Below are positions 3,994 to 47,856 of a DNA stretch of 64,000 bases, piece after piece. Made by a program: the position numbers and the translations under genes. Source of the DNA: Candidatus Limnocylindria bacterium (GTDB lineage Bacteria > Chloroflexota > Limnocylindria > QHBO01); NCBI GenBank assembly GCA_038233215.1, contig JBBSML010000007.1, positions 21,002-85,001 on the forward strand, read 5' to 3'. Position 1 is the first letter of the stretch. Every line of letters begins with the position of its first letter. A model generated the notes under the pieces. The model did not search any database. It saw only the letters and a program-made list of their open reading frames with translations, and was not told the DNA's origin.

Positions 3994-4500
3994 TCAGATC
4001 CCGGCGGCCGCTTCTTCCTCGACCCGCTCGGACGCGTCGCGGACGCGCACCAGTTCATCGAGCGTTTCGAGATAGTCGACATAGAGCGTCCCGTTGAGGT
4101 GATCGATCTCATGCTGGAGGGCCCGGGCGAGGAGCTCCGTGCCCTTGATGCGGAACTCCCTGCCATGGCGGTCCCGCGCCTTGACGGCCACCTTCGCATG
4201 CCGGGTGATCTCGGCGACGTAGCCCGGGATGGACAGGCAGCCTTCCCAGTCGATCTCTTCACCGGAGACCTTGACGACCTGGGGATTCACGAGCTCGGTG
4301 ATTCGGTCATCCACCTCGATGACCGCGACCTGGAGCGGGATGCCGATCTGGTTGGCCGCCAGGCCCACGCCGGGGGCGTCACGCATCGTCTCGAGCATGT
4401 CATCGAGCAGTCGGTGCAGGCTTGCGTCGAAGGTTGAAACACGCTTCGTTCGCTCGCGCAGGATCGGTTCTTCGGCGGTGAGAATGCGGCGGATGGCCAT
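3994..4500 (-). CDS. def: Peptide deformylase
   Basis: GVGLAANQIG, EGCLSIPG and HEIDHLNG motifs. Confidence 0.9.
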   Translation of the reverse strand: MAIRRILTAEEPILRERTKRVSTFDASLHRLLDDMLETMRDAPGVGLAANQIGIPLQVAVIEVDDRITELVNPQVVKVSGEEIDWEGCLSIPGYVAEITRHAKVAVKARDRHGREFRIKGTELLARALQHEIDHLNGTLYVDYLETLDELVRVRDASERVEEEAAAGI

Positions 4501-4521
4501 GGCGCTGCGCATTGTACCGAT

Positions 4522-6882
4522 TCACAGGAGAGACTCGGGGTCCACGTCGATCGCGATTCCCGGCGGCACGCGCTCCAATGCCGCGGCACGCGTCTCGGCG
4601 TCGGGCGCACGGATCACGACCTGCATCCGGAAGCGCCCAGCGCGCCGCACGACGTAGGATGGCAACGGGCCAAGCACCTCCGCCCCGGGGACGGCAACGG
4701 CAGCAGCCGCCTGGCGCCCGCGCTCTTCGGCTCGGGCGCGGTCGGCGTCGGCCACGAGCAGACGGGCCAGCACGCTGAACGGCGGGTAGCCCAGGAGGCG
4801 GCGACGGAGGAGCTCCTCGTCCGCGAAGCCCTCGACGTCCAGAGCAGCCGCCGCCTTCACCGCGTAGTGCCCTGGCGCATAAGTCTGGATGATGACGCGG
4901 CCCGCCATCGGGCCCCTGCCCGCACGTCCCGCCACCTGCGCCAGCAGTTGGAACGTGCGCTCGGCCCCCCGGTAGTCGGGCAGGTTGAGCGTGACGTCGG
5001 CCGCGATCACGGCGGCGAGAATAACCGAGGGCAGGTCCAAACCCTTGGCGGCCAGCTGGGTGCCGACCAGCACGTCGGTTCGTCCTTCCCTGAAGTCGTC
5101 ATAGATCGTCTCGAAGCCGCGCCGCGCGCTGAGCGCATCGGAATCGAGTCGGCCGATTCGCAGGCCGGGGTAGCGCGCGCGGAGCTCGGCTTCCACGCGC
5201 TGCGTGCCCGCGCCGAAATACCGGATCCGTGCGCTGCCGCAAGCCGGGCATGTCCCGGTCGGCGCGCTGGACCTCCCGCAGTGGTGACAGCGCAGGGTCC
5301 CACCCTCCAGGTGGTAGACGAATGGCAGCTCGCAGTCGGGACAGCGCAGGCTCTCGCCGCAGTCGCGACAGAGGATGAAGGTGGCGGCACCTCGCCGGTT
5401 CAGCAGCAGGACGGCCTGTTCGCTCCCCCGGCGAAGCGCTCCGAGCGCGTCGGCCAGGGCCGTTGAGAAGATTGACCGATTGCCGCCGGCGAGCTCGGCG
5501 CGAAGGTCCGCGACCTCGATGGCAGGCGTCGAACCCACGCGTCGCTCGACCAGGTGCGCGTGTTCGGCGTGGCCTCCCCGCACGCGCGCCAGGCTGACGA
5601 GGTCGGGAGTGGCACTGCCCAGCACGATGCGGGCTCCGGCGATCGACGCCCTCCGGCGCGCCACCCAGCGCGCGTCGTAGCGGGGCGTGCGGTCGGACTT
5701 GTAGCCACCGTCATGCTCCTCGTCGACGATGATCAGCCCCAGGCGCGCAAGCGGCGCAAAGGTGGCCGTGCGTGTCCCGATCACGACGCGAACCTCGCCA
5801 CGCAGGATGCGCCACCACTCGTCGTGCCGCTCCCCGGCCGAGAGCCCGGAGTGCAGCACTCCGAGCTCCGCGCCGACGAGTGCCCGGAGACGGTCCGCAA
5901 TCTGCGGGACCAGGCTCACCTCCGGAACCGTGATGATGATGTTCAGCCCGGCCCGAAGCGTTGCCACCGTCGCCGCCAGATACACATCGGTCTTGCCGGA
6001 CGCTGCCACGCCCTGGAGCAGCAGCTCGCCACCCGATGTCAATGCGCTGACCGCGTCAAGCGCGGCGACCTGCTCCCGGGACAGCCGGTGACGGAGGTCG
6101 GGTATCTCGACTCGGTGCGCGAGCGGACTGCGTTCGACGTTGCGCCAGTCGAGCTCCGCCCGGCCCAGAGCCACCAGGCGACGGGCCGGAGCGAGGAGGG
6201 CGGCCGCATCCGTCTCGAGCTCGGCCGCAAGCTCCACCATCGTCCGCTCTCCAGCCTCGAGGGCGTCGAGCAACGCGCGCTGCACGGGCGCTCGACGCGC
6301 CGGCTCCGTCCCGCCCGGCACCGGTCGGAGCACGCGCACGCGGCGGGGGTTCACGTCGGCGGCGCGGAGCGACCACTCCGATCGAAGGGCGCCGACGCGA
6401 CGCAGGCGCTCGAGCCAGGTGGCGCGACCCCGGCGGGGAGCGAAGCGCATGAGCGTGGCATCGGACAATCGCCCGTCGGCGTCGGTTGCCTCCGGAACGC
6501 CCGTCGGGACCGCGGAAACGTCGAGGACCTCCCATCGCCGCGCGAGCCGAGACTCGAGGCCGGGCGGCAGCATGGCCGCAAGCGTCGTCCCGATGGGAGC
6601 GCGGTAGTACGCGGCGATCTCCTCGGCCAGCGTGAGCAGGTCCGAGGTCAGCATCGGCGGCGAGACCACGGCCTCGATCGGCTTCAGATCGTCATCTGCA
6701 GGGGCGTCGGCCTCGCCGGCGAGGACGTATCCGAGCGCCAGGCGGCGACCGTACGGAACCAGCAGCAACGATCCCGGGGCCGGCATCTTCAGCTCGACCG
6801 GAACAAGGTAGCTGAACGTGCGCTCGGGCCGATCGGCGAGCGCATCGACCGCCACGCGCACGGCACGTCTGCCCGGCGTCAT
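4522..6882 (-). CDS. priA: Primosomal protein N' (PriA helicase)
   Basis: Walker A GVAASGKT, DEEHD box, CxxC...CxxC zinc-binding cysteines and a helicase C domain. Confidence 0.85.
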   Translation of the reverse strand: MTPGRRAVRVAVDALADRPERTFSYLVPVELKMPAPGSLLLVPYGRRLALGYVLAGEADAPADDDLKPIEAVVSPPMLTSDLLTLAEEIAAYYRAPIGTTLAAMLPPGLESRLARRWEVLDVSAVPTGVPEATDADGRLSDATLMRFAPRRGRATWLERLRRVGALRSEWSLRAADVNPRRVRVLRPVPGGTEPARRAPVQRALLDALEAGERTMVELAAELETDAAALLAPARRLVALGRAELDWRNVERSPLAHRVEIPDLRHRLSREQVAALDAVSALTSGGELLLQGVAASGKTDVYLAATVATLRAGLNIIITVPEVSLVPQIADRLRALVGAELGVLHSGLSAGERHDEWWRILRGEVRVVIGTRTATFAPLARLGLIIVDEEHDGGYKSDRTPRYDARWVARRRASIAGARIVLGSATPDLVSLARVRGGHAEHAHLVERRVGSTPAIEVADLRAELAGGNRSIFSTALADALGALRRGSEQAVLLLNRRGAATFILCRDCGESLRCPDCELPFVYHLEGGTLRCHHCGRSSAPTGTCPACGSARIRYFGAGTQRVEAELRARYPGLRIGRLDSDALSARRGFETIYDDFREGRTDVLVGTQLAAKGLDLPSVILAAVIAADVTLNLPDYRGAERTFQLLAQVAGRAGRGPMAGRVIIQTYAPGHYAVKAAAALDVEGFADEELLRRRLLGYPPFSVLARLLVADADRARAEERGRQAAAAVAVPGAEVLGPLPSYVVRRAGRFRMQVVIRAPDAETRAAALERVPPGIAIDVDPESLL

Positions 6883-20836: not shown

Positions 20837-20882
20837 TGTGGAGGCGACGACGGGAATCGAACCCGTGTACGCGGTTTTGCAG
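20837..20882. repeat. attL: 46-bp copy of the 3' end of tRNA-Cys (left boundary of the island)
   Basis: tgtggaggcgacgacgggaatcgaacccgtgtacgcggttttgcag is identical to 32794..32839. Confidence 0.85.
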
Positions 20883-23060: not shown

Positions 23061-25595
23061 TCAGTCGTATGGACGCGAGTCCTCCGACTCGTAGAGAGCG
23101 GTAACCTTTGCCCCCTGGAATGCGAGAACCGCCGTCCGCGCCGCGGCATCAGCGAGATCCAGTACGCGAAGTGTTCCGTCCTCCACCCTGGCCACCGACT
23201 CAACACGAACGAACCGATCGCTGTACCGCTCGGCGAACATCGCGAGCGCATGGAGCTTGGCTCGCGCGTCTGCGAGATAGTCGCCATGTGGATCGACGAT
23301 CGATGCCCCGAGCGTCCCATCTGAACGCCGGGACACAATGATGAAGTCGGGCTGTAGGGACGCCCACTGCCCATCGTCGTGGTGGTACGCGATCCGCAGC
23401 GACGCCGGCGTTGCGCTTCCCGGATTGCGGTACCACGCGACGAACCCGGGCCGGGCTAGCTCCGCCTGAACGACTCGCCGCTCCCACTCGTTGAGCTCCG
23501 CGGGAAACATCCCGCCGTCGTCCGCGTATAAGTGCCCCGAGTACCTGGGCAAATCTTCGCCGTGCCGGTCCTTCGTGGCGGCCCGTTCGTTTGCCCGCAG
23601 TTCGACTGTCACCTCCTCGGGGGACGTCGTTTGCTCGCGTACCCGCGTGTAGGCAGCGCGCGTAGCGCCTGTCGTAAGCAGGATCTCCACCCGGACCCGG
23701 TTGAGCTGTTCCTGGACCCACGCAGTCGTTGTCTCGTCGATGGCCCCGACGACGCTCTCCACGCGCAGGAGCGCGGCGACCTGGACACGGACCTGATCCC
23801 GGTTTGCGCCCGGCCCGGCAGCCGCCAGCCGATGCGCGAACCATGCCTTTCCGACGCCCTCGCGCACAGCATTGATCATCCGCTGGCTGTCCCGCGCCAC
23901 ATCGCGTGCGTGGGTCGCAATCCTCCGAACCTCGGGCTCTGCGCCGGTTTCCTCGCCGACCGTCGTGATGCGTGATCGCCGAACCTCGGCCGCGAGCATG
24001 TCCTCGATGTTCGCGTCCACGGCTGCCCTGTGCTCCGCGGCGAGGCCATCGAGCCGCGAGTTCAGGCGCGACGTCAGTTCAGCTACGGCGTTCGCCAGCA
24101 GTGGCGCTCCGCTCGCATCGTCGGCGAGAAGCCGGGCGAGCGTCCTGGCCCGTCTCAGCGGGCTGGCGCTGCGGTCGGGCGTCGGGATGCTGGGCAGCGC
24201 GCCGATGAAGTCGAAGACTTCGCGGCCCAGGTGCGGATTGCGATCGAAGACCTGCGGCGCCCGCACAACCGCCGCCGCCACCCGGAGCTGGCCGTTGTCC
24301 GGCCCGGTACCCTCGAGCGCGTCCTTGATGGCCGTCAGCGCCTTCCGATCGAACAGCGGCAGGTAGCAGGTGACCGAGTTCAGGGCGTCATCGGTCGCGA
24401 TGCGGTGCGCCAGCGGCTGGCGAACCATCCGGCCGATGATCTGGGCGATGTGCGTCGCATCCTTCGCGGGCCGCTCCGAGTAGAGCACCTCTGCGCGCGG
24501 GCAGTCCCATCCGGTGGAGATCGCTTCCTTGGCCAGCACGACGCGGACATCGGTATCGGTCTGGATCGACTCGGGGAACACCCACTCGACTGTCCGCGAG
24601 CCCAGCGTCATCGTCTGATGCTCGCCGAGGACGTGCGCGATCGCCTGCGGCCCGAGCTCGGGCCACTCCTCCTCGATGGTCGAGACCAGCTCGGTGAGCT
24701 TGGCATCGCTCGCCTTGTCCGGCACCTGGACAACGAGCACGGGGAGCACCTCGGGCTCGCCCTCGGCGGCCGAGTACGCGGCCCAGCGCTCCTCAAACGT
24801 CCTCGTTGCCTTGACCGCCTCCCGCAGCAACGTCGTCGAGAACGTGCCCTTCTCGTCGGGCTGGTCGAGGCCGATCTCGTCCTTGACCAGGCCCGAAGCA
24901 CGCACGCGCCCGATGTCGACCGCGACGTTCGGACGGGTGATGCGGTTGGTGACCTCACCCATCGCGCGGGTGAATCGGTCAATAGTGGCGGAGATGCCCC
25001 ACACGATGGGCATCGGCGGGTTGGAGCCTGGCTGACCGCTGATGAGCCGATGCACGATCGTCTGCCGATCCGCCGCGCGCTTCATGCCGCGGTGCGCCTC
25101 GTCGAGGACCATGACGAGTCCCGTCTGGCGTCCCCGGATCGTGTTGCGCAGGATGTCCCAGAACGAGAACTCCCTGGTATTCGTGCCGCCCTGTGCGAGG
25201 CGGCTCGACTTCGACAGCTTCTGGGTGTTGAGGAAATAGACGTGGCGTGACGCCAGGTCGGCATCCGGGAACGACTCATCGATGTCGCGCAGCTGCCAGT
25301 TGTTGAGTAACTCGGACGCATCGAGCATGCGAGCCTTGGTCTGCCGGTTGAGTGCGGGGTCATCGGTGATCCACAGGAAGCTCACACCCGGATCGGGCTC
25401 GGTGTCGAGGTCGGTCGAGCCGAAGAAGAGCGCCTCGATGACTGCCGTCGCGATGACCGTCTTGCCGGAGCCGGTGATAGCGGACAGCGCGAAGGAGGAG
25501 AGGTCTCCATGGGCCACGTCCCGGCGTGATCGCTGGAGGCGCTTGATGACCTCGATGGCGGCGTCGCGCTGATAGTCGCGCAGCTCGTAACGCAT
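23061..25595 (-). CDS. res: Type III restriction enzyme Res subunit (SF2 helicase plus endonuclease)
   Basis: Walker A ITGSGKT, VMVLDEAHRG (DEAH box), helicase C motifs; directly downstream of and abutting mod. Confidence 0.75.
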   Translation of the reverse strand: MRYELRDYQRDAAIEVIKRLQRSRRDVAHGDLSSFALSAITGSGKTVIATAVIEALFFGSTDLDTEPDPGVSFLWITDDPALNRQTKARMLDASELLNNWQLRDIDESFPDADLASRHVYFLNTQKLSKSSRLAQGGTNTREFSFWDILRNTIRGRQTGLVMVLDEAHRGMKRAADRQTIVHRLISGQPGSNPPMPIVWGISATIDRFTRAMGEVTNRITRPNVAVDIGRVRASGLVKDEIGLDQPDEKGTFSTTLLREAVKATRTFEERWAAYSAAEGEPEVLPVLVVQVPDKASDAKLTELVSTIEEEWPELGPQAIAHVLGEHQTMTLGSRTVEWVFPESIQTDTDVRVVLAKEAISTGWDCPRAEVLYSERPAKDATHIAQIIGRMVRQPLAHRIATDDALNSVTCYLPLFDRKALTAIKDALEGTGPDNGQLRVAAAVVRAPQVFDRNPHLGREVFDFIGALPSIPTPDRSASPLRRARTLARLLADDASGAPLLANAVAELTSRLNSRLDGLAAEHRAAVDANIEDMLAAEVRRSRITTVGEETGAEPEVRRIATHARDVARDSQRMINAVREGVGKAWFAHRLAAAGPGANRDQVRVQVAALLRVESVVGAIDETTTAWVQEQLNRVRVEILLTTGATRAAYTRVREQTTSPEEVTVELRANERAATKDRHGEDLPRYSGHLYADDGGMFPAELNEWERRVVQAELARPGFVAWYRNPGSATPASLRIAYHHDDGQWASLQPDFIIVSRRSDGTLGASIVDPHGDYLADARAKLHALAMFAERYSDRFVRVESVARVEDGTLRVLDLADAAARTAVLAFQGAKVTALYESEDSRPYD

Positions 25596-27710
25596 CTAAT
25601 CGCGCCCGCGCTCGGGCAGGAACATCGACAGGTAGGAATCGGGCAGGCGGACGGTGTCCATGCCGTTGGGCAGCTCAGCGGCGATGCCGGCGAACGTGGT
25701 CGGCGAGTGCGTCACGATGAACGCGGTGGTCGCCGTCTCCGGGCGTGCCGAGACGAAGCTGCGCCATCGGTCCTCGTCGAAGAGGATGCCGTACCGATCC
25801 GTCCAAGCGTACGGGAGCGGGGCGCCGGCCTCGTCCGTGCGCGGTGCGATCGGCCCGGAGGCGCCGGCGCGCAGCCAGAGCAGCGGCGCGATGGCGTCGT
25901 AGGCCAGTCCGAGGTCGACGTCGTCCGCGTCGAGGTAGCGGAGCTCCAGGAAAGCGGCGTTCTCCTCGAGACCGTCGGCAATCGGGAACTCATCGGTGAA
26001 CTTGTAATCGCCCTTGTTCGGTTCGCCATCCGGCGTTTGGCCGGTGATCGCCGCCGTCACGCGCGGCCGCGTGATGTGCTCGAAGATGCCGAGCGCCTCC
26101 CACTCCGGATCGCCGGGCCGGAGGCCCTGGGCGCGCAGACCCTTCGCCTCGTCGACGGACACCTCGTTATTGGTGACCATGATCGATTGTCGCCGACCGC
26201 CGTCCTGCCGATTTAGCCGCATGACGGCATGAGCCGTAGTTGCCGAGCCCGCGAAAAAGTCCAGCACAACGGCGTCGGGCTTGCTCTTCACGAAGAAGCG
26301 GACCGTGTCTTCGACGGCATATAGAGACTTGGGAAACGGAAATCGACGGTCCTTGAGCAACGCGCGCAAGAGCGAGGTGCCGTACTGGCCGGCGTCGTGA
26401 CCTGGAAACCTCCATGCAGTGGTAGCCCGCGTGACCTTTCCTTGCATCGCCACCACGACCTTCGATCCATCAGGTCGCTCGCCAGCGATGGCCCATTCTC
26501 CTGCCTTGATCCTCCGTAGTGCGCTGGCGCTGAGGTAGGTGAAGATGAACGGCTGATGAGCGTGGCCGGCACTAACGCGAACAAACCCAGCATCGTTAAG
26601 ACGCAACAGGCTAGGCCCTGTCAATCCCCAGTTCATGTGCAGTCCATCCTCGCGAATGGGAAACACGGGTACGGCGTCACGCCTAGCCGGGACACTCTCG
26701 ACGGGGTCCGTAGGTCCCAGCGGATCGCCGACACCCACGATGCGTTGTGTCTCGGGTGAGACGAAGATCGGATAGAACTGCCTCGGCCGAGTGCGCCGCA
26801 CAGACGAGAGGTCAGTACGACGCAAGTACCACCACCTCACCTCGCGTTCGTGGCCATCGCCAGTGGGGTGAACTACGTGTGCGCCGCCGAGGATGGCGAA
26901 GAAGATGTACTCATCGGATCGGGAAAACAAGTCCTCCCGCTTCGCGCCCGACGGGTTGATCACGCTGCTGACCATCTGCAGCCGGGCATTGGCGAATGTC
27001 TGTTCCAACAGCAGTCCCAGACGGAGGTACTCCCGCTCGTCGATCGTGACGATGAGGACCGAGTCGTCGGGATTCAGGAGCTCCTTGGCGAGCTTGAGGC
27101 GCCGCTCCATAAATGCGAGCCACTTGCTATGGCGGTAGGCATCGCTGTCGTCGACGTAGTCGTTGTTGTACTTCCAGTCGCGCGCGCCGCTGTTGTAGGG
27201 CGGGTCGATGTAGATGCAGTCGACCTTGCCGGCGTGGGTAAAGCGCAGTGCCTCGAGCGCGTGGTGGTTCTCGCCATTGATGACGACGTGGTACGGCTTG
27301 TCGCCGCCGCGCTCGACCGTGCCGACGGAGCGAAATCCGGGCAGCACCGGCTCGCCGAAGTCGGTGATGACGACTAGCGAATCGAGCGGCATGCGTTCGC
27401 GCTCGCCGACTGCGTGCTCGCCCCGGGCGACGTAGGCGCCATCCGGATCGCGAACCAGTCCCACGGTCGCGAGGGGATCCTCGACAGCGAGGACCTCGTA
27501 GGTCGGACTGTCGGGGTCATCTCGGCTGACGACTTGGGAGCCGGTGCGGATCGCATGCTGAGGCAACCGCACCCGCTCGGGGATGTGCTGCTCGAACACC
27601 AGCCCGAAGCTGCGGCGCTGCTTGAGCCGATCGGTCTGGCTTCGAAGGTCCTCCCGCAGGGCCGGATCCTCGACCCGCTCGAGGAGGACGTCCAGCTCGC
27701 TTCGAATCAT
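25596..27710 (-). CDS. mod: Type III R-M Mod subunit (N6-adenine DNA methyltransferase)
   Basis: CIYIDPPYN (motif IV DPPY), DFFAGSATTAHAV (motif I, FxGxG). Confidence 0.8.
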   Translation of the reverse strand: MIRSELDVLLERVEDPALREDLRSQTDRLKQRRSFGLVFEQHIPERVRLPQHAIRTGSQVVSRDDPDSPTYEVLAVEDPLATVGLVRDPDGAYVARGEHAVGERERMPLDSLVVITDFGEPVLPGFRSVGTVERGGDKPYHVVINGENHHALEALRFTHAGKVDCIYIDPPYNSGARDWKYNNDYVDDSDAYRHSKWLAFMERRLKLAKELLNPDDSVLIVTIDEREYLRLGLLLEQTFANARLQMVSSVINPSGAKREDLFSRSDEYIFFAILGGAHVVHPTGDGHEREVRWWYLRRTDLSSVRRTRPRQFYPIFVSPETQRIVGVGDPLGPTDPVESVPARRDAVPVFPIREDGLHMNWGLTGPSLLRLNDAGFVRVSAGHAHQPFIFTYLSASALRRIKAGEWAIAGERPDGSKVVVAMQGKVTRATTAWRFPGHDAGQYGTSLLRALLKDRRFPFPKSLYAVEDTVRFFVKSKPDAVVLDFFAGSATTAHAVMRLNRQDGGRRQSIMVTNNEVSVDEAKGLRAQGLRPGDPEWEALGIFEHITRPRVTAAITGQTPDGEPNKGDYKFTDEFPIADGLEENAAFLELRYLDADDVDLGLAYDAIAPLLWLRAGASGPIAPRTDEAGAPLPYAWTDRYGILFDEDRWRSFVSARPETATTAFIVTHSPTTFAGIAAELPNGMDTVRLPDSYLSMFLPERGRD

Positions 27711-27839
27711 GCGCTAAGCCTACCCGCAGGCGCGGCGACGTTCCCACATTCCCGCGCAGCCGAAAGGACCTCGTTTCGGGCAGCCCGCGCTACGTTGAGA
27801 ATCAGCCACGAATGCTTCACTGATGTGAGGCTCCCTTTT

Positions 27840-27873
27840 CGGAGCGCCCAGCGACTTCGGAGCGCCCAGCGAC
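27840..27873. repeat. Tandem 16-bp repeat cggagcgcccagcgac x2 (18-bp period), ~130 bp upstream of the mod start
   Basis: Direct reading. Confidence 0.9.
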
Positions 27874-28006
27874 ACCCTGGGTAGCGCTTCGAGCATCACC
27901 TGGCCGTATGCTTTACCGCGGCGAGATGGCTCAGAGACCCACTAGACCGGCGCCCCTAGCTCAACAAACAACGCGTTACCAGGCAACCAACTCGCGGGCG
28001 GCCGGC

Positions 28007-28179
28007 CCCCGAAGCGTTCCCCGTAGCGTTCCCCGTATCAAGTGTTCGAACGTACCCTGACGATACGAAGCTGCAGGGAACGGAGCTTCGGGCTTCGGAG
28101 CGTGAGGGCGCTTGATCCCCGAAGCGTTCCCCGTAGCTCCCGTATCAAGTGTTCGAACGTACCCTGACGATACGAAGCT
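28007..28179. repeat. Two ~66-bp direct repeats (28007..28072 and 28117..28179), each containing the GTTCGAAC palindrome and a GTATC...GATAC inverted repeat
   Basis: Copy 1 and copy 2 are nearly identical apart from a cgttc indel. Confidence 0.85.
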
Positions 28180-28228
28180 CGACTACCGTGTACGCCAGTT
28201 ATAGCGTCGACTCAGGAGGTACTCACGG

Positions 28229-28399
28229 ATGCCCCTGTCCGCTGAACAAATGCAGACAATGATGGCCGAGATCGACTGCGGAGTGACCCGCGAGGAGTCC
28301 CGGCTGGCACCCCTCGACGCCGCTGAAGCGGGGTTCTGGGAACGGGCCGTGGTCGAGATCCGGGCCATCAAAGAGCAAGGCTATCCCGCCGGCGACTGA
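28229..28399 (+). CDS. Unannotated 56-aa ORF with a strong SD (AGGAGG-N8-ATG): MPLSAEQMQTMMAEIDCGVTREESRLAPLDAAEAGFWERAVVEIRAIKEQGYPAGD
   Basis: Canonical SD, ATG start and high GC3; located immediately after the 66-bp repeat pair. Absent from the ORF track only because it is under 60 aa. Confidence 0.5.
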   Translation: MPLSAEQMQTMMAEIDCGVTREESRLAPLDAAEAGFWERAVVEIRAIKEQGYPAGD

Positions 28400-28445
28400 T
28401 GGGCGGCCAGCCGGCACCCAGCCGCCGGAGGACGATGACCGATCA

Positions 28446-29045
28446 CTACTGACCGATCGACCGCTTCAGTCTTCCAAGGGTGGCCGTTCCGATGCCAAGG
28501 CGGCGAGCGGCTTCGCGCTGAGAGAGCTTGCCGGCGGCCAGCTCCGCACGCACCGTCTCCCAGCGACGTGCGAAGCCGTGGCGTGAGGAGACGGGCGGCC
28601 TCCCGATGCGGGCGCCGTTGCGTGCAGCTTTCCTCATTCCCTCTCGCACGCGATCCGCGATCAGCTCCCGCTCCATCTCGGCCACGGCCGCGAGGATCGT
28701 GAAGACCAACCGCCCCGTGGCGCTGGTCGTGTCGAGCTCGGGCTGAGTCAGTGACGCGAATCCGACCCCGGAATGCTCGAGGTCGCGCAAGGTGGCGAGA
28801 GCGTGCAAGGTGGAACGGTAGGCACGGTCGAGCTTCCAGACCAGGACACGGTCGACGCGTCGTCTAGCTGCGTCTGCCAACAGGCGGGCCCACGCGGTCC
28901 GGTGGCTCAAGTCGCCGGCCGCAGCCGCGTCAACGTATTCAGTGGCGATCCAGCCGCGCGCCGAAACGTACTCCCGCATGGCCACGAGCTGGAGCTCTGG
29001 GTCTTGGTCTTTGTCGCGCGTGCTGACACGCGCGTACAGGGCCAC
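28446..29045 (-). CDS. Serine recombinase (resolvase/invertase family)
   Basis: VALYARVSTRDK catalytic-serine motif near the N-terminus (probable GTG start at 29045); C-terminal HTH. Confidence 0.75.
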   Translation of the reverse strand: MALYARVSTRDKDQDPELQLVAMREYVSARGWIATEYVDAAAAGDLSHRTAWARLLADAARRRVDRVLVWKLDRAYRSTLHALATLRDLEHSGVGFASLTQPELDTTSATGRLVFTILAAVAEMERELIADRVREGMRKAARNGARIGRPPVSSRHGFARRWETVRAELAAGKLSQREAARRLGIGTATLGRLKRSIGQ

Positions 29046-29131
29046 ACGGATGCCCGCATCCCGCCGACGTCCGTCTGACTCTGCGAACTGACCGGCCCCT
29101 CTTGGAGGGGCACCGACGACGACTCGATCGG

Positions 29132-30409
29132 TCATACCGTCGGCTCCCACGGCGGCCACAGGACGACTTGCGTGGTGTCGAGCCTTCCACCTACGCCATC
29201 CAGCAACGTCGGATTGACCGCACCGCCCGCGGTGACCGCACTCTCGGTTGGTAGATGAGTTTCAACCGCTACACCGCTACGCTCGAGCTTCGCTTCACGC
29301 TCCGAGGCAGCGGAGTAGCGGTTGGGATCGCCTATGGGTGGCGGCAAGTAGCGACTGAACGCGTCGGTGAACTGCTCGAGGTCATAGCCACGGACGTTCT
29401 CTCCACCGATCCTCAGTTGACGGGCGCGAATCCCGAACGGGCTGAGCAGCCGGCCCATGCCGGTTGGCCTCAGTCCTCGACCGTTGTTCCACTCCTGCCA
29501 AGGATGAACCTCGAACTCATCCGCCAGCAGAACATCCAGCAGGTCCCTCAATGCCAGCCGCTCGATGCGACGTTCCGCGAAGATCGTACGGATGTCGCCA
29601 AGCAGTAGGACGGCGACCTTTTCCTCCTCGAGCTCGAGCACCCCGGAGAGCCGTAGGGCAGCGCGGCGCCCGCGCGACGGCCACTCTGCCCCCGCCGCAT
29701 CGGCCAGGGCCAGCAACGGTTCCCAGCTGTCTGCTGCTCGATCAGGCAGCTCTTCTGGTACGTCGGCCTCCTCGGGCAGCCGCAGCTCAGATGCGAGGAC
29801 CTCCCACGCGTCTCTTATGGGCGACGCGTCGCGCTCAGCTGTGCGATACCGGAAGCGTTCGACAGGCTCATGTCGAGCGCGGCGCTTCAGGGCGACGACG
29901 ATAGATCGGTCCTGGACCGTATCGGGTAGCCGTCCGATGCTGGCGATTGCTTTCGGGCAATACACCTCGAACGACTCGAGGCGCATCTTCTTACCCTCAC
30001 TCACGACTCGCCAGAACGGGACACCGCGTCGGTAGCCGTTGTTGAGCAGGCCGCGTATGTCCTCCCCGCCATCGGGGTTCCGCCTTCCAAAGATTGTGTC
30101 TGCTTCGTCCAAGAGCAATGTCGGGTGCCGCTCGTCGATGATGCGAAAGAGGGCCGCGAGGCTCGCACCCGCCATTGGCACGGGCTCGCGAGTGAGCAGG
30201 CGCAGGCACTCGAGTAGCCGTGTCTTCCCAGAACCCTTCTCCGGGCTCTGGATGGCCAAGTACGGCGTCGTGTCGAATTGGTCGTACAGCCAGGAATGAC
30301 CCACCCACAGAGCGACCGCATGGGCTAGTTCTGCGCTGCCAAGGACGACAAAACGGCTCAGAAAGACAGCCGTGCAGTCCAGCAGGTCAGACGTCGCGCT
30401 AGGGCTCAT
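29132..30409 (-). CDS. DUF3631-like P-loop NTPase (replication/mobilization-associated protein of actinobacterial integrative elements)
   Basis: Walker A SPEKGSGKT, LLDEAD Walker B; the family call is from memory. Confidence 0.5.
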   Translation of the reverse strand: MSPSATSDLLDCTAVFLSRFVVLGSAELAHAVALWVGHSWLYDQFDTTPYLAIQSPEKGSGKTRLLECLRLLTREPVPMAGASLAALFRIIDERHPTLLLDEADTIFGRRNPDGGEDIRGLLNNGYRRGVPFWRVVSEGKKMRLESFEVYCPKAIASIGRLPDTVQDRSIVVALKRRARHEPVERFRYRTAERDASPIRDAWEVLASELRLPEEADVPEELPDRAADSWEPLLALADAAGAEWPSRGRRAALRLSGVLELEEEKVAVLLLGDIRTIFAERRIERLALRDLLDVLLADEFEVHPWQEWNNGRGLRPTGMGRLLSPFGIRARQLRIGGENVRGYDLEQFTDAFSRYLPPPIGDPNRYSAASEREAKLERSGVAVETHLPTESAVTAGGAVNPTLLDGVGGRLDTTQVVLWPPWEPTV

Positions 30410-32709: not shown

Positions 32710-32795
32710 GTTCGCGATTGTACGCGCATTGCTACCGGCGTTGCTACCGACACTGCGAAACCTGAACCCGCGGCCTCGTTACCGTGCTTGGATTG

Positions 32796-32870
32796 TGGAG
32801 GCGACGACGGGAATCGAACCCGTGTACGCGGTTTTGCAGACCGCTCCCTAAACCACTCGGGCACGTCGCC
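32796..32870 (-). tRNA. tRNA-Cys (GCA); its 3' 44 nt form attR
   Basis: GGCGACG..anticodon loop CTGCAAA..GGGTTCGATTCCCGTCGTCGCCTCCA. Confidence 0.85.
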
Positions 32871-35919: not shown

Positions 35920-36140
35920 CAAACGCCCAATGAAGCGTGGTCCGCCCCGTAGGGCGAGGCTAACGATCAATGAAGCGTGGTCTCTTGTGCCATTTACCGG
36001 TCCGACGGGTCATCTTGCCGACAGGCGCGCGGTTCTGCCTCGTCCGATGGCCGATAGCTCCGCACCACGGGTCCCGCGCTCGCGATCCACGAGGGCTCAC
36101 TCGTTCAATGGCGGATAGTCCCGCACCACGGGTCGCGCGT
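35920..36140. repeat. Intergenic repeat block: caatgaagcgtggtc x2 flanking the hairpin CGCCCCGTAGGGCG, and two ~27-bp imperfect repeats atggc(c/g)gatag(c/t)(t/c)ccgcaccacgggtc
   Basis: Read directly between tRNA-Val and tRNA-Leu; no convincing ORF. Confidence 0.6.
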
Positions 36141-36207: not shown

Positions 36208-36293
36208 TGGTGCCCAGGCCGGGACTTGAACCCGGATGAGTTGCCTCATACGCCCCTCAAACGTACGCGTATACCAATTCCGCCACCTGGGCC
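36208..36293 (-). tRNA. tRNA-Leu (GAG)
   Basis: Class II tRNA with a long variable arm; anticodon loop TTGAGGG. Confidence 0.7.
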
Positions 36294-36299
36294 CGAGCG

Positions 36300-36386
36300 T
36301 GGTACCGAGGGAGGGACTTGAACCCACACGACCTTGCGGCCACTAGGTCCTGAACCTAGCGCGTCTGCCTATTCCGCCACCTCGGC
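36300..36386 (-). tRNA. tRNA-Leu (CAG)
   Basis: GCCGAGGTGGCGGAATAGGCAGACGC..anticodon loop TTCAGGA..long variable arm..GGGTTCAAGTCCC. Confidence 0.8.
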
Positions 36387-46746: not shown

Positions 46747-47856
46747 TCAGCGAGAGGCGCTGCGGACCGGCTTGGCCACGCCGCTGCGTGACCGTCGGCG
46801 GGCGTCCCACTCGTTCCAGGCGACCAGGATCTGAGCCGCGTTGAAGATCGACGAGTACGTCCCGCTGACGACGCCGAGGAGCAGTGCGAGGCCGAACGTG
46901 CGAATGGTCGGAGGACCGAGCAGCACGAGCGCACCGAGCGTGACCGCCACGGTGATCGACGTGATGATCGAGCGGCTCATCGTCTGGAGAATGGAGTGGT
47001 TGACGATGGCGCCGAACGACTCGCCGGCGTGACGAATCCGATTCTCACGGATCCGGTCGAACACGACGATCGTGTCGTGCGCGCTGAACGCGATGATCGT
47101 GAGCAACGCGGTGACGAAGAGCGCGTCGAACTCGACGTGAAAGAAGAAGCCAAGGATGGCGAATGTGCCGACCACCAGGATGACGTCATGGAGCAACGCG
47201 ACGATCGCCGCGGTGCCAAAACGGAACCCGAAGCGCATCCACAGGTAACCAAGGAGAAACAGCTCGCCGATGATGATCAGGATCGCCGAGGTTCGGATCA
47301 GCTCAACCCCGATGATGGGTCCGACGGTTCGCAGGCTCTGTGGATCGCCGGGCCCGAAGATGCCCTCGAGTTCCTCCTGGAGATCCGCGAACTCGGTCCC
47401 CTCGGCGATCGGGCCGGGTGAGGGCTCCGCGGATGGACTCACGGATCCCGACGCCGACGGCTCGGCGCTGGCGGATGGCTCGATGGACGCCGAGGGCTCA
47501 GCGCTCACGGATGGCTCGACGCTGGCCGATGGCTCGACGCTGGCCGATGGCTCGATCGACGCAGATGCCGATGGTGCGAGCGTCTCGGCGGGGATGAGGT
47601 CGATCGGCTCCGTGCGAATGCGAACGACGCCGTCGGGCAATTGCGTGACGAGCGCGTCCTCGTAGCCGAGCTCGGCGAGCGTGGCGGTCATCTCGGCGGC
47701 GGTCGGCTCATCGGCGTAGCGGACCTCCCACTCCGTGCCACCGGTGAAGTCAATCGATGGCCTGAGGCCGCCGAGGAGAATGAATAGCAGTCCGGGAATG
47801 GTGAGGATCGCGCTGATGACGAACCACAGGTTGCGCTTGCCGACGATGTCATACAT
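46747..47856 (-). CDS. secF: Protein translocase subunit SecF, with a low-complexity (EPSAS)n insertion
   Basis: Conserved N- and C-terminal SecF TM core; inserted APSASASIEPSASVEPSASVEPSVSAEPSASIEPSASAEPSAS. Confidence 0.8.
   Translation of the reverse strand: MYDIVGKRNLWFVISAILTIPGLLFILLGGLRPSIDFTGGTEWEVRYADEPTAAEMTATLAELGYEDALVTQLPDGVVRIRTEPIDLIPAETLAPSASASIEPSASVEPSASVEPSVSAEPSASIEPSASAEPSASGSVSPSAEPSPGPIAEGTEFADLQEELEGIFGPGDPQSLRTVGPIIGVELIRTSAILIIIGELFLLGYLWMRFGFRFGTAAIVALLHDVILVVGTFAILGFFFHVEFDALFVTALLTIIAFSAHDTIVVFDRIRENRIRHAGESFGAIVNHSILQTMSRSIITSITVAVTLGALVLLGPPTIRTFGLALLLGVVSGTYSSIFNAAQILVAWNEWDARRRSRSGVAKPVRSASR

Follow-up and report, generated by a model that had tools for sequence, protein, structure and literature searches.

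DUF3631 corresponds to RepAM, the replication initiator of the actinomycete integrative element (AICE) pMEA300 (PMC3218068). The pMEA300 RepAM protein binds multiple identical 8-bp repeats; the hairpin that contains them is in the 3' end of repAM itself, beside a pC194-like CTTGAT sequence (te Poele et al. 2006, reviewed in PMC2440964); the pC194-type nick consensus cited for RepAM origins is CTTGATA (PMC2440964). RepAM elements are predicted to be rolling-circle replicators (PMC3218068, PMC2440964) and are stated to lack features of the iteron type (PMC2440964). In the IncU plasmid RA3, the origin lies in the 3' end of rep and the replication module is flanked by composite tandem repeats, DR1 and DR2 (period about 100 bp, about 3.5 copies), of which DR1 titrates the initiator (PMC9455977). 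The locus described here shares traits with both systems. It belongs to an island in a 64-kb stretch of DNA from a Candidatus Limnocylindria bacterium (the window; all coordinates are given in its numbering). The island encodes a DUF3631 protein, and a 735-bp spacer at 27711-28445, between its replication genes and its type III restriction-modification (R-M) genes, contains an array of long tandem repeats. We tentatively suggest that this array belongs to the island backbone and acts in cis as DNA to which a protein binds, with accessory replication or copy control as its most likely role.

Anatomy of the repeat array

The spacer extends from the ATG of mod (27710, - strand) to the stop codon of a small serine recombinase (resolvase) gene (28446, - strand). 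A preliminary description of this DNA had noted two near-identical direct repeats of about 66 bp. Both are found, at 28007-28072 (66 nt) and 28117-28179 (63 nt), with a 3-bp deletion as their sole difference; a 41-nt segment is 100% identical between them where shuffled sequences give an expectation of 0 matches, so the repeats are far beyond chance. They are in reality 1.6 copies of a larger unit. The 44 nt that separate them are part of this unit, since related contigs repeat them too; what is present is a tandem array whose period is 97-110 bp (a unit of about 108 bp). The long repeat has a single locus within the 64 kb. The features of the spacer are listed below; L001 and similar labels denote fetched comparison contigs or loci, and L004, a metagenome contig, is described in the next section.

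27711..27761: mod-proximal 50 bp, showing no conservation in the L004 alignment; junction of cargo and conserved block
27762..28006: left half of the conserved block, free of the long repeat; non-coding, since codon-position GC is flat and L004 has indels here
27814..27841, + strand: terminator-like hairpin GCTTCACTGATGTGAGGC followed by a T-run; kept in L004, where it lies 3' of a + strand cargo gene
27838..27873: short tandem duplication of TTCGGAGCGCCCAGCGAC, 18 bp in two identical copies; single copy in L004
28007..28116: repeat unit 1 (110 bp), with a left arm of three 12-mers, a 32-bp core, an inverted right arm and a tail
28035..28066: 32-bp core of unit 1 (47% GC), GTATC-N22-GATAC enclosing GTTCGAAC, with CTTGATA on the - strand (28036-28042)
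28117..28179: repeat unit 2, cut off after GATACGAAGCT, with the 3-bp deletion within its 12-mers; ends 35 bp before the Shine-Dalgarno sequence of ORF56
28142..28173: 32-bp core, second copy, GTATC-N22-GATAC
28214..28219, + strand: Shine-Dalgarno sequence AGGAGG, 9 nt before the ATG
28229..28399, + strand: ORF56, encoding an acidic 56-aa protein; starts 50 bp past the last unit

Each unit is an imperfect palindrome, in which two inverted arms of about 28 nt surround a 32-bp core of lower GC content with dyad symmetry. The left arm consists of the 12-mers CCCCGAAGCGTT, CCCCGTAGCGTT and CCCCGTATCAAG, with 2.6 copies of the 12-bp sub-repeat CCCCGTAGCGTT at 28007-28037. The right arm, GCTGCAGGGAACGGAGCTTCGGG, is an imperfect inverted copy of the left one and is followed by the conserved tail TCGGAGCGTGAGGGCGCTTGAT. 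The palindrome and the GTATC..GATAC inverted repeat that had been noticed in each long repeat are borne out, with GTTCGAAC occurring once per copy at 28044 and 28151. The unit folds into one long hairpin on either strand (z = -2.6 and -3.2 for the two strands), as reflected in the fold of the whole array (z = -3.4 and -4.3). The short tandem repeat had also been seen before, but was taken for 16 bp at 27840-27873 instead of 2 x 18 bp at 27838-27873.

A scan for sigma-70-like promoters found none, and a search for DNA similarity to plasmids and phages found none either. Identification of the array as a miniature inverted-repeat transposable element or other dispersed repeat was rejected: there are no terminal inverted repeats and only a single locus is present.

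Conservation of the array beside different cargo

Three contigs (L001, L002 and L003) carry islands that are 97-100% identical to that of the window. All three break inside the array: L001 begins within it, L002 begins within it and retains at least three units, and L003 (metagenome-assembled genome [MAG] GCA_030154725.1) begins within it and retains at least four. Unit counts of 2, at least 3, at least 4 and 2 were obtained for the four sources; they are provisional, as the underlying metagenome assemblies are built from short reads. The number of 12-mers per unit also varies between two and three among the near-identical islands. Tandem units of 40-110 bp with variable copy number are a trait of variable-number tandem repeats (VNTRs), and this trait is seen here in the short-read assemblies. 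Dispersed VNTRs and elements like mycobacterial interspersed repetitive units (MIRUs) or repetitive extragenic palindromes (REPs) have many loci per genome, a trait not seen here, with one locus in the 64 kb.

L004 is the sole match to the core 20-mer in the Joint Genome Institute (JGI) metagenomes; the same 20-mer has 0 matches in 185,579 species genomes, and an exact-pattern scan of IMG/VR with two patterns found none. L004 keeps the whole non-coding block of about 420 bp (27762-28179), including two units, at about 86% identity, while its flanks are unalignable. To the left of the block, in place of mod, is a different gene of opposite orientation, and neither a Shine-Dalgarno sequence nor an ATG lies to the right of the array. 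Because L004 has a single 18-bp copy, the 18-bp duplication is strain-specific. The preliminary description had held that repeats limited to one strain and absent from related islands would undermine the element; this applies to the 18-bp duplication and not to the long repeats, which are present in all four related contigs. On these alignments, the long array and the 245 bp that precede it on the left make up a conserved non-coding module at the backbone/cargo junction, from which the 50 bp adjacent to mod are excluded.

Across eight unit copies from the four sources, little or no change is seen in the 41-nt core and in the 31-nt tail between units. The search for covariation across homologous islands that had been proposed for the long unit gave 0 compensatory pairs in these eight copies. 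The two-strand symmetry of the fold and the lack of covariation, in what is a shallow sample, point to a DNA element rather than an RNA. No homologous array was found in more distant islands.

The island and its replication module

The placement of the spacer within an island, as proposed in the preliminary description, is confirmed by 46-bp attachment-site (att) direct repeats at 20837-20882 and 32794-32839. The island is 11,957 bp in size and is integrated at tRNA-Cys. Its order, starting from the tRNA, is tyrosine integrase, Xre-like protein, HTH_17 protein, DUF3631 P-loop protein, resolvase, ORF56 (opposite strand), repeats, mod, res and TetR. The backbone is made up of the integrase, Xre-like, HTH_17, RepAM and resolvase genes and the cargo of the type III mod-res pair and the TetR gene; the spacer is the junction between the two. 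The scan of the island ORFs revealed no transfer gene of the FtsK type. MAGs of Candidatus Limnocylindria and other Chloroflexota are the sources of the closest RepAM relative and of the named resolvase relatives. The principal features are as follows.

20837..20882: attL, 46-bp direct repeat that bounds the island on the left; it matches the tRNA-Cys 3' end and is 100% identical to attR
23061-25595: res (ResIII), downstream of mod
25596..27710, - strand: mod (type III-like, N6_N4_Mtase, 704 aa), cargo
28446..29135, - strand: small serine recombinase (Resolvase domain and C-terminal helix-turn-helix [HTH]), overlapping the repAM stop codon
29132..30409, - strand: repAM (DUF3631, P-loop), replication initiator gene
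29265-29322, - strand: inferred primary origin in the 3' coding tail of repAM, with three exact GTAGCGGT 8-mers, two in tandem (29265 and 29273; 29265-29280, - strand) and one inverted (29315-29322)
32794..32839: attR, second copy of the 46-bp repeat; it overlaps tRNA-Cys (32796-32870, - strand) in its 3' part

Homologues of the DUF3631 protein are found fused to Toprim, zf-CHC2 (primase zinc-finger) and DnaB_N domains. A set of 75 distant DUF3631 loci (L005-L079) from species genomes was surveyed for Tandem Repeats Finder arrays with periods of 8-18 bp. Such arrays lie no more than 400 bp past the end of DUF3631 homology in 19 of the 75 loci, against 4.4% expected (binomial P = 4e-10). The typical array has three iterons, a spacer and three inverted iterons (e.g. 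L051 9054-9206, L062 7479-7555, L078 8721-8937 and L008 2476-2549), in agreement with what is published for RepAM of pMEA300 (PMC2440964). The loci with 3' iterons span Actinomycetota, Chloroflexota, Acidobacteriota, Nitrospirota, Proteobacteria and Planctomycetota, so this trait is much wider than the actinomycete AICEs in which it was originally described.

The 64 kb of the window contain three exact copies of GTAGCGGT, all of them within the repAM tail. The arms change jointly in relatives (CCGCTAC/GTAGCGG in the window and L080, CCGGTAC/GGTACCG in L084, CCGCTAG/CTAGCGG in L082 and L085), and the encoded residues ('RY..A....SGVA') shift along with them. The segment 29265-29322 is thus predicted to be a primary RepAM origin of the pMEA300 type, inside coding sequence. 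With the primary origin in the 3' end of repAM, the spacer array is not that origin. It lies about 950 bp past the repAM stop codon (29132), beyond the resolvase gene and ORF56, and consists of imperfect 12-mers and long imperfect arms, not of identical 8-bp inverted repeats. The preliminary description had listed iteron-like sites for a replication initiator among the possible roles of the repeats. Their membership of a RepAM backbone agrees with this proposal, and the family-typical origin at 29265-29322 shows that they are not the origin itself. Because the repeats belong to a replication-competent RepAM backbone, an iteron-like protein-binding role is plausible.

Two further observations concern RepAM relatives. 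In L087 (RepAM 64% identical), a Terminase_6N gene lies beside repAM (4347-5270), which raises the possibility that this family of islands includes phage satellites or small elements resembling prophages. In relatives without the resolvase, a conserved T-rich motif (ACCCGTTTTTTTAGCGGGCGG-like) follows directly after the repAM stop codon (L084 7320-7345, L085 3930-3960 and L087 3925-3950), which is unusual at about 66% GC.

Two other repeats were seen elsewhere in the window. The spacer upstream of a tRNA-Leu pair (36208-36386) has, at 36039-36139, a pair of 40-nt direct repeats that are 85% identical and separated by 61 bp. At 47450-47562, an 18/36-bp tandem repeat of about 3-6 copies (about 75% matches) is apparently within a long ORF.

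Sister islands with the same resolvase

The resolvase is strikingly conserved. Homologues of it number in the hundreds, the best 120 listed being 76-85% identical; no relatives were found in IMG/VR. The gene sits between replication gene and cargo, and the replication proteins of these islands are of four unrelated kinds: DUF3631 (window and L080), an 846-aa protein without a domain (L089), D5_N/DUF5906 (L099) and AAA_25 (L101). A homologous resolvase at the backbone/cargo junction was also seen across L080 and L089-L102. DNA methyltransferases and R-M systems are frequent among the cargo of the sister islands (L099 has an MmeI-like one).

Three of the four sister types carry their own, unrelated arrays of short iterons just past the resolvase gene. 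L080, the closest island with the same repAM-resolvase operon, has two 54-bp direct repeats of the 10-bp iteron CCGGCAGGCT, starting 77 bp past the resolvase stop codon (array region 4841-4951). L099 has 9-bp iterons, CCGCAGTGA, in sets of two, two and five at the same position (5836-6075), and L089 has ATTGCCG-type repeats past the resolvase (5690-5930). In the window the array likewise follows the repAM-resolvase operon, adjacent to the replication module as titration and iteron arrays such as RA3 DR1, P4 crr and P1 incA are. A repeat array after the resolvase is a shared trait of these islands; the partner of such arrays could be a replication protein or a local regulator.

ORF56

The 56-aa ORF pointed out in the preliminary description at 28229..28399 is present and gene-like by codon-position GC (0.70/0.47/0.77, vs 0.68/0.46/0.81 for mod), while the other small ORFs of the spacer are flat. 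AGGAGG precedes its ATG as stated, at a spacing of 9 nt and not 8. Judged by its composition, ORF56 is probably a real, expressed orphan gene of a narrow lineage. It is identical in L001 and L002; in L003, whose island is otherwise 97% identical, there is one substitution, and a 171-bp insertion (L003 565-735; window 28384) replaces the last four codons to give 63 aa. Among 5.8 billion proteins, homology was found only to itself and to one 98% variant (2 clusters), and a full HMMER scan of 1.84 billion representatives gave only low-complexity-like matches to long proteins. P0003, a 572-aa JGI protein in the same 90%-identity cluster, looks unrelated in sequence and was taken as a clustering artefact. 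The small ORF had been expected to lose its standing if it were not conserved; it is kept in L001-L003, with no conservation beyond the lineage.

A Pfam scan of the ORF56 protein found nothing and no HTH. The structure prediction that had been recommended for the peptide gave an AlphaFold2 model of two helices (pLDDT 85), for which Foldseek found nothing below E = 2 in the PDB. Since the protein is acidic and without a DNA-binding fold, it is neither a C-protein (the controller of an R-M system) nor a DNA-binding autoregulator.

Function of the array

The proposed model is as follows. The array would serve as a set of binding sites in cis for a protein, and this binding would contribute to the replication or maintenance of the island. 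In one variant, the units would be titration or pairing sites for the initiator or for another DNA-binding protein of the island or host, as DR1 is in RA3. In another, they would form a hairpin that acts as the lagging-strand origin of a rolling-circle RepAM replicon. The observations that count for an accessory replication or copy-control locus are the family-wide arrays at the end of the replication module (19/75), the arrays at the same position in L080 and L099, the conservation of the block in L004, the strong dyad and CTTGATA. This last motif occurs three times in 64 kb, and two of the occurrences are in the unit cores (28036 and 28143, on the - strand, which is the repAM strand), abutting the 12-mers. 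CTTGAT is also found on the + strand at 28111, in the unit tail. The array therefore has the nick motif of a RepAM origin, although a motif so short is suggestive only. In addition, the 11-mer TCGGAGCGTGA has two occurrences and no others, one in the unit tail (28095) and one in the loop of the element in the repAM tail (29295), and GTAGCGTT (28023) is one mismatch off the RepAM 8-mer GTAGCGGT.

Several observations weigh against such a role. With up to one mismatch, GTAGCGGT occurs 73 times in 64 kb, and the two occurrences in the block (27881 and 28023) compare with about 0.6 expected. Homology of the array to the repAM-tail origin, at which the shared 11-mer and the near-8-mers had seemed to hint, is not supported: when the repAM tail is locally aligned to the block, shuffles and random genomic segments reach the best score in 7% of cases (p about 0.07). 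Since near-8-mers are common and the alignment is not significant, the link between array and RepAM is a lead, not a result. A search for DnaA boxes found none. All 13 variant cells in the arms of the eight unit copies disrupt pairing, and the middle of the palindrome is not visibly constrained. The copy numbers may be unreliable, coming from short-read assemblies. The element is also so rare (two ORF56 clusters in 5.8 billion proteins, one metagenome match and no genome match for the core 20-mer) that comparative power is low. Finally, the arrays of L080, L099 and L089 lie directly upstream of, or inside, a weakly predicted winged-helix gene and so could be operators instead of replication sites. 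The tail of this sister protein is hydrophobic and, by eye, may span the membrane; a homologue of the gene is absent from the window.

The rival that has to be taken most seriously is a neutral minisatellite, a slippage-prone, functionless duplication in a non-coding spacer. The variation among near-identical islands from two to at least four units, and from two to three 12-mers per unit, is what slippage would produce; the strain-specific 18-bp duplication fits as well, as do the lack of compensatory change, of homologous arrays in distant islands and of a match to any known family. A functionless repeat would not readily account for a 41-nt core and 31-nt tail that hardly vary, if at all, in eight copies from four sources, for the survival in L004 of the entire block, non-repeated half included, at about 86% identity between unalignable flanks, or for unrelated arrays at the same position in sister islands, and we consider this explanation somewhat unlikely. 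The array could instead be an operator or leader for ORF56, its units being dimeric regulator sites that set ORF56 transcription and perhaps act as an insulator between it and the divergent mod. The last base of the array is the same in the window, L002 and L003 and lies 35 bp short of the ORF56 AGGAGG; the iterons of L080 and L099 are directly upstream of the next gene past the resolvase; GTTCGAAC and GTATC-N22-GATAC resemble dyad operators; and the + strand terminator-like hairpin at 27814-27841 would shield against read-through. However, L004 keeps the array with no Shine-Dalgarno sequence or ATG after it, no sigma-70-like promoter was found, tandem 108-bp units of varying number are atypical for operators, and the acidic ORF56 protein, without a DNA-binding fold, cannot autoregulate. 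An operator function is rather unlikely but stays a serious rival.

The remaining alternatives are far less probable. A structured non-coding RNA, in which the hairpin units are transcribed as a small RNA or as a type III antitoxin-like RNA paired with ORF56, is suggested by units that fold better than shuffles on both strands and by tandem repeats followed by a small ORF on the same strand, which recalls ToxI-ToxN. The symmetry of the two strands suits DNA dyads better, no Rfam match was obtained at E <= 1, the variation is entirely disruptive with 0 compensatory pairs, no promoter was found, no terminator lies between array and ORF56, and the 56-aa product shows no similarity to toxins of ToxN, CptN or TenpN size; the small-RNA locus put forward in the preliminary description is accordingly very improbable. 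The units might also be res or crossover sites of the adjacent serine recombinase, with recombination between direct copies altering their number. The array is 267 bp from the resolvase stop codon, the inverted GTATC ends of the 32-bp core are spaced to suit a resolvase dimer, and copy number differs between assemblies. Known res sites are upstream of the resolvase gene, and downstream of the 77-85% identical resolvases of L080, L089, L099 and L101 there is no GTATC-N16-27-GATAC site and no above-chance shared 14-mer, which makes this use of the repeats very doubtful. Least probable of all is a role in type III R-M control, in which ORF56 would be the analogue of a C-protein that acts on the repeats as boxes. 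This proposal, also made earlier, draws on the position of the array upstream of, and divergent to, mod. It is hard to reconcile with a conserved block that starts 50 bp from mod and adjoins an unrelated gene in L004, with an ORF56 product that has a net negative charge, no HTH and no homologues, and with the fact that ORF56 and the array travel with the backbone in L001-L003.

If the array is a locus for accessory replication or copy control, it would be a second cis element for RepAM-type replicons, which are themselves poorly understood, and would help explain the upkeep of small islands that lack transfer genes and carry defence cargo, here a type III R-M system. A minisatellite or local operator would be an ordinary finding. 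We regard as very unlikely the more novel possibility that the transcribed units and ORF56 are a new pair of repeat RNA and small acidic protein; such a pair could stabilise the island or protect it beside its type III R-M cargo, whether through addiction of a type III-like kind or as a decoy or anti-restriction device. In a milder version, the array would be the first accessory copy-control or lagging-strand locus described for RepAM-type replicons, a group that is said to have no iteron-like features. In every case, the repeats belong to the backbone of the mobile element and not to the restriction system.

Comparison with known systems

Type III toxin-antitoxin systems (ToxIN) resemble the locus in having tandem direct repeats just upstream of a same-strand ORF. 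They differ in unit length (about 36 nt vs 107-110 nt here) and in their toxin, an endoRNase of about 170 aa, where ORF56 is acidic, has 56 aa and shows no homology; there is also no terminator before the ORF in the window. Single-strand origins of the ssoA type, found in rolling-circle plasmids, are non-coding, strongly palindromic and cassette-like, with a length of about 100-200 nt. The array is likewise palindromic and non-coding, and TAGCGT (the CS-6 consensus) is present at 28024; this motif lies in the stem and not in the terminal loop, and tandem multiplicity is not a trait of single-strand origins. Phage P4, a small integrative satellite, carries crr, two direct repeats of about 120 bp that lie away from ori, contain several initiator-binding motifs each and are required in cis for replication. 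The P4 alpha protein is a primase-helicase unrelated to RepAM and no significant sharing of a motif in this manner was found here, so that there is a resemblance only.

Another of the closest known systems is the RepAM origin of the pMEA300 type. The island encodes DUF3631/RepAM, and the 3' end of the repAM gene (29265-29322) contains an 8-bp repeat in three identical copies, arranged as inverted repeats. The spacer array, 1.1 kb further on, past the resolvase gene and ORF56, differs from this origin in its imperfect 12-mers and 108-bp unit. The host of pMEA300 belongs to the Actinomycetales, that of the island to the Chloroflexota (Limnocylindria), and no FtsK-like gene is among the ORFs scanned. 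RA3 and the island have no sequence or protein homology, and the RA3 repeat shares a 25-bp segment with its origin whereas the similarity between the window array and the repAM tail is not significant. The origin, known in RA3 and predicted here, lies in the 3' end of the rep gene in both, and long tandem repeats flank the replication module.

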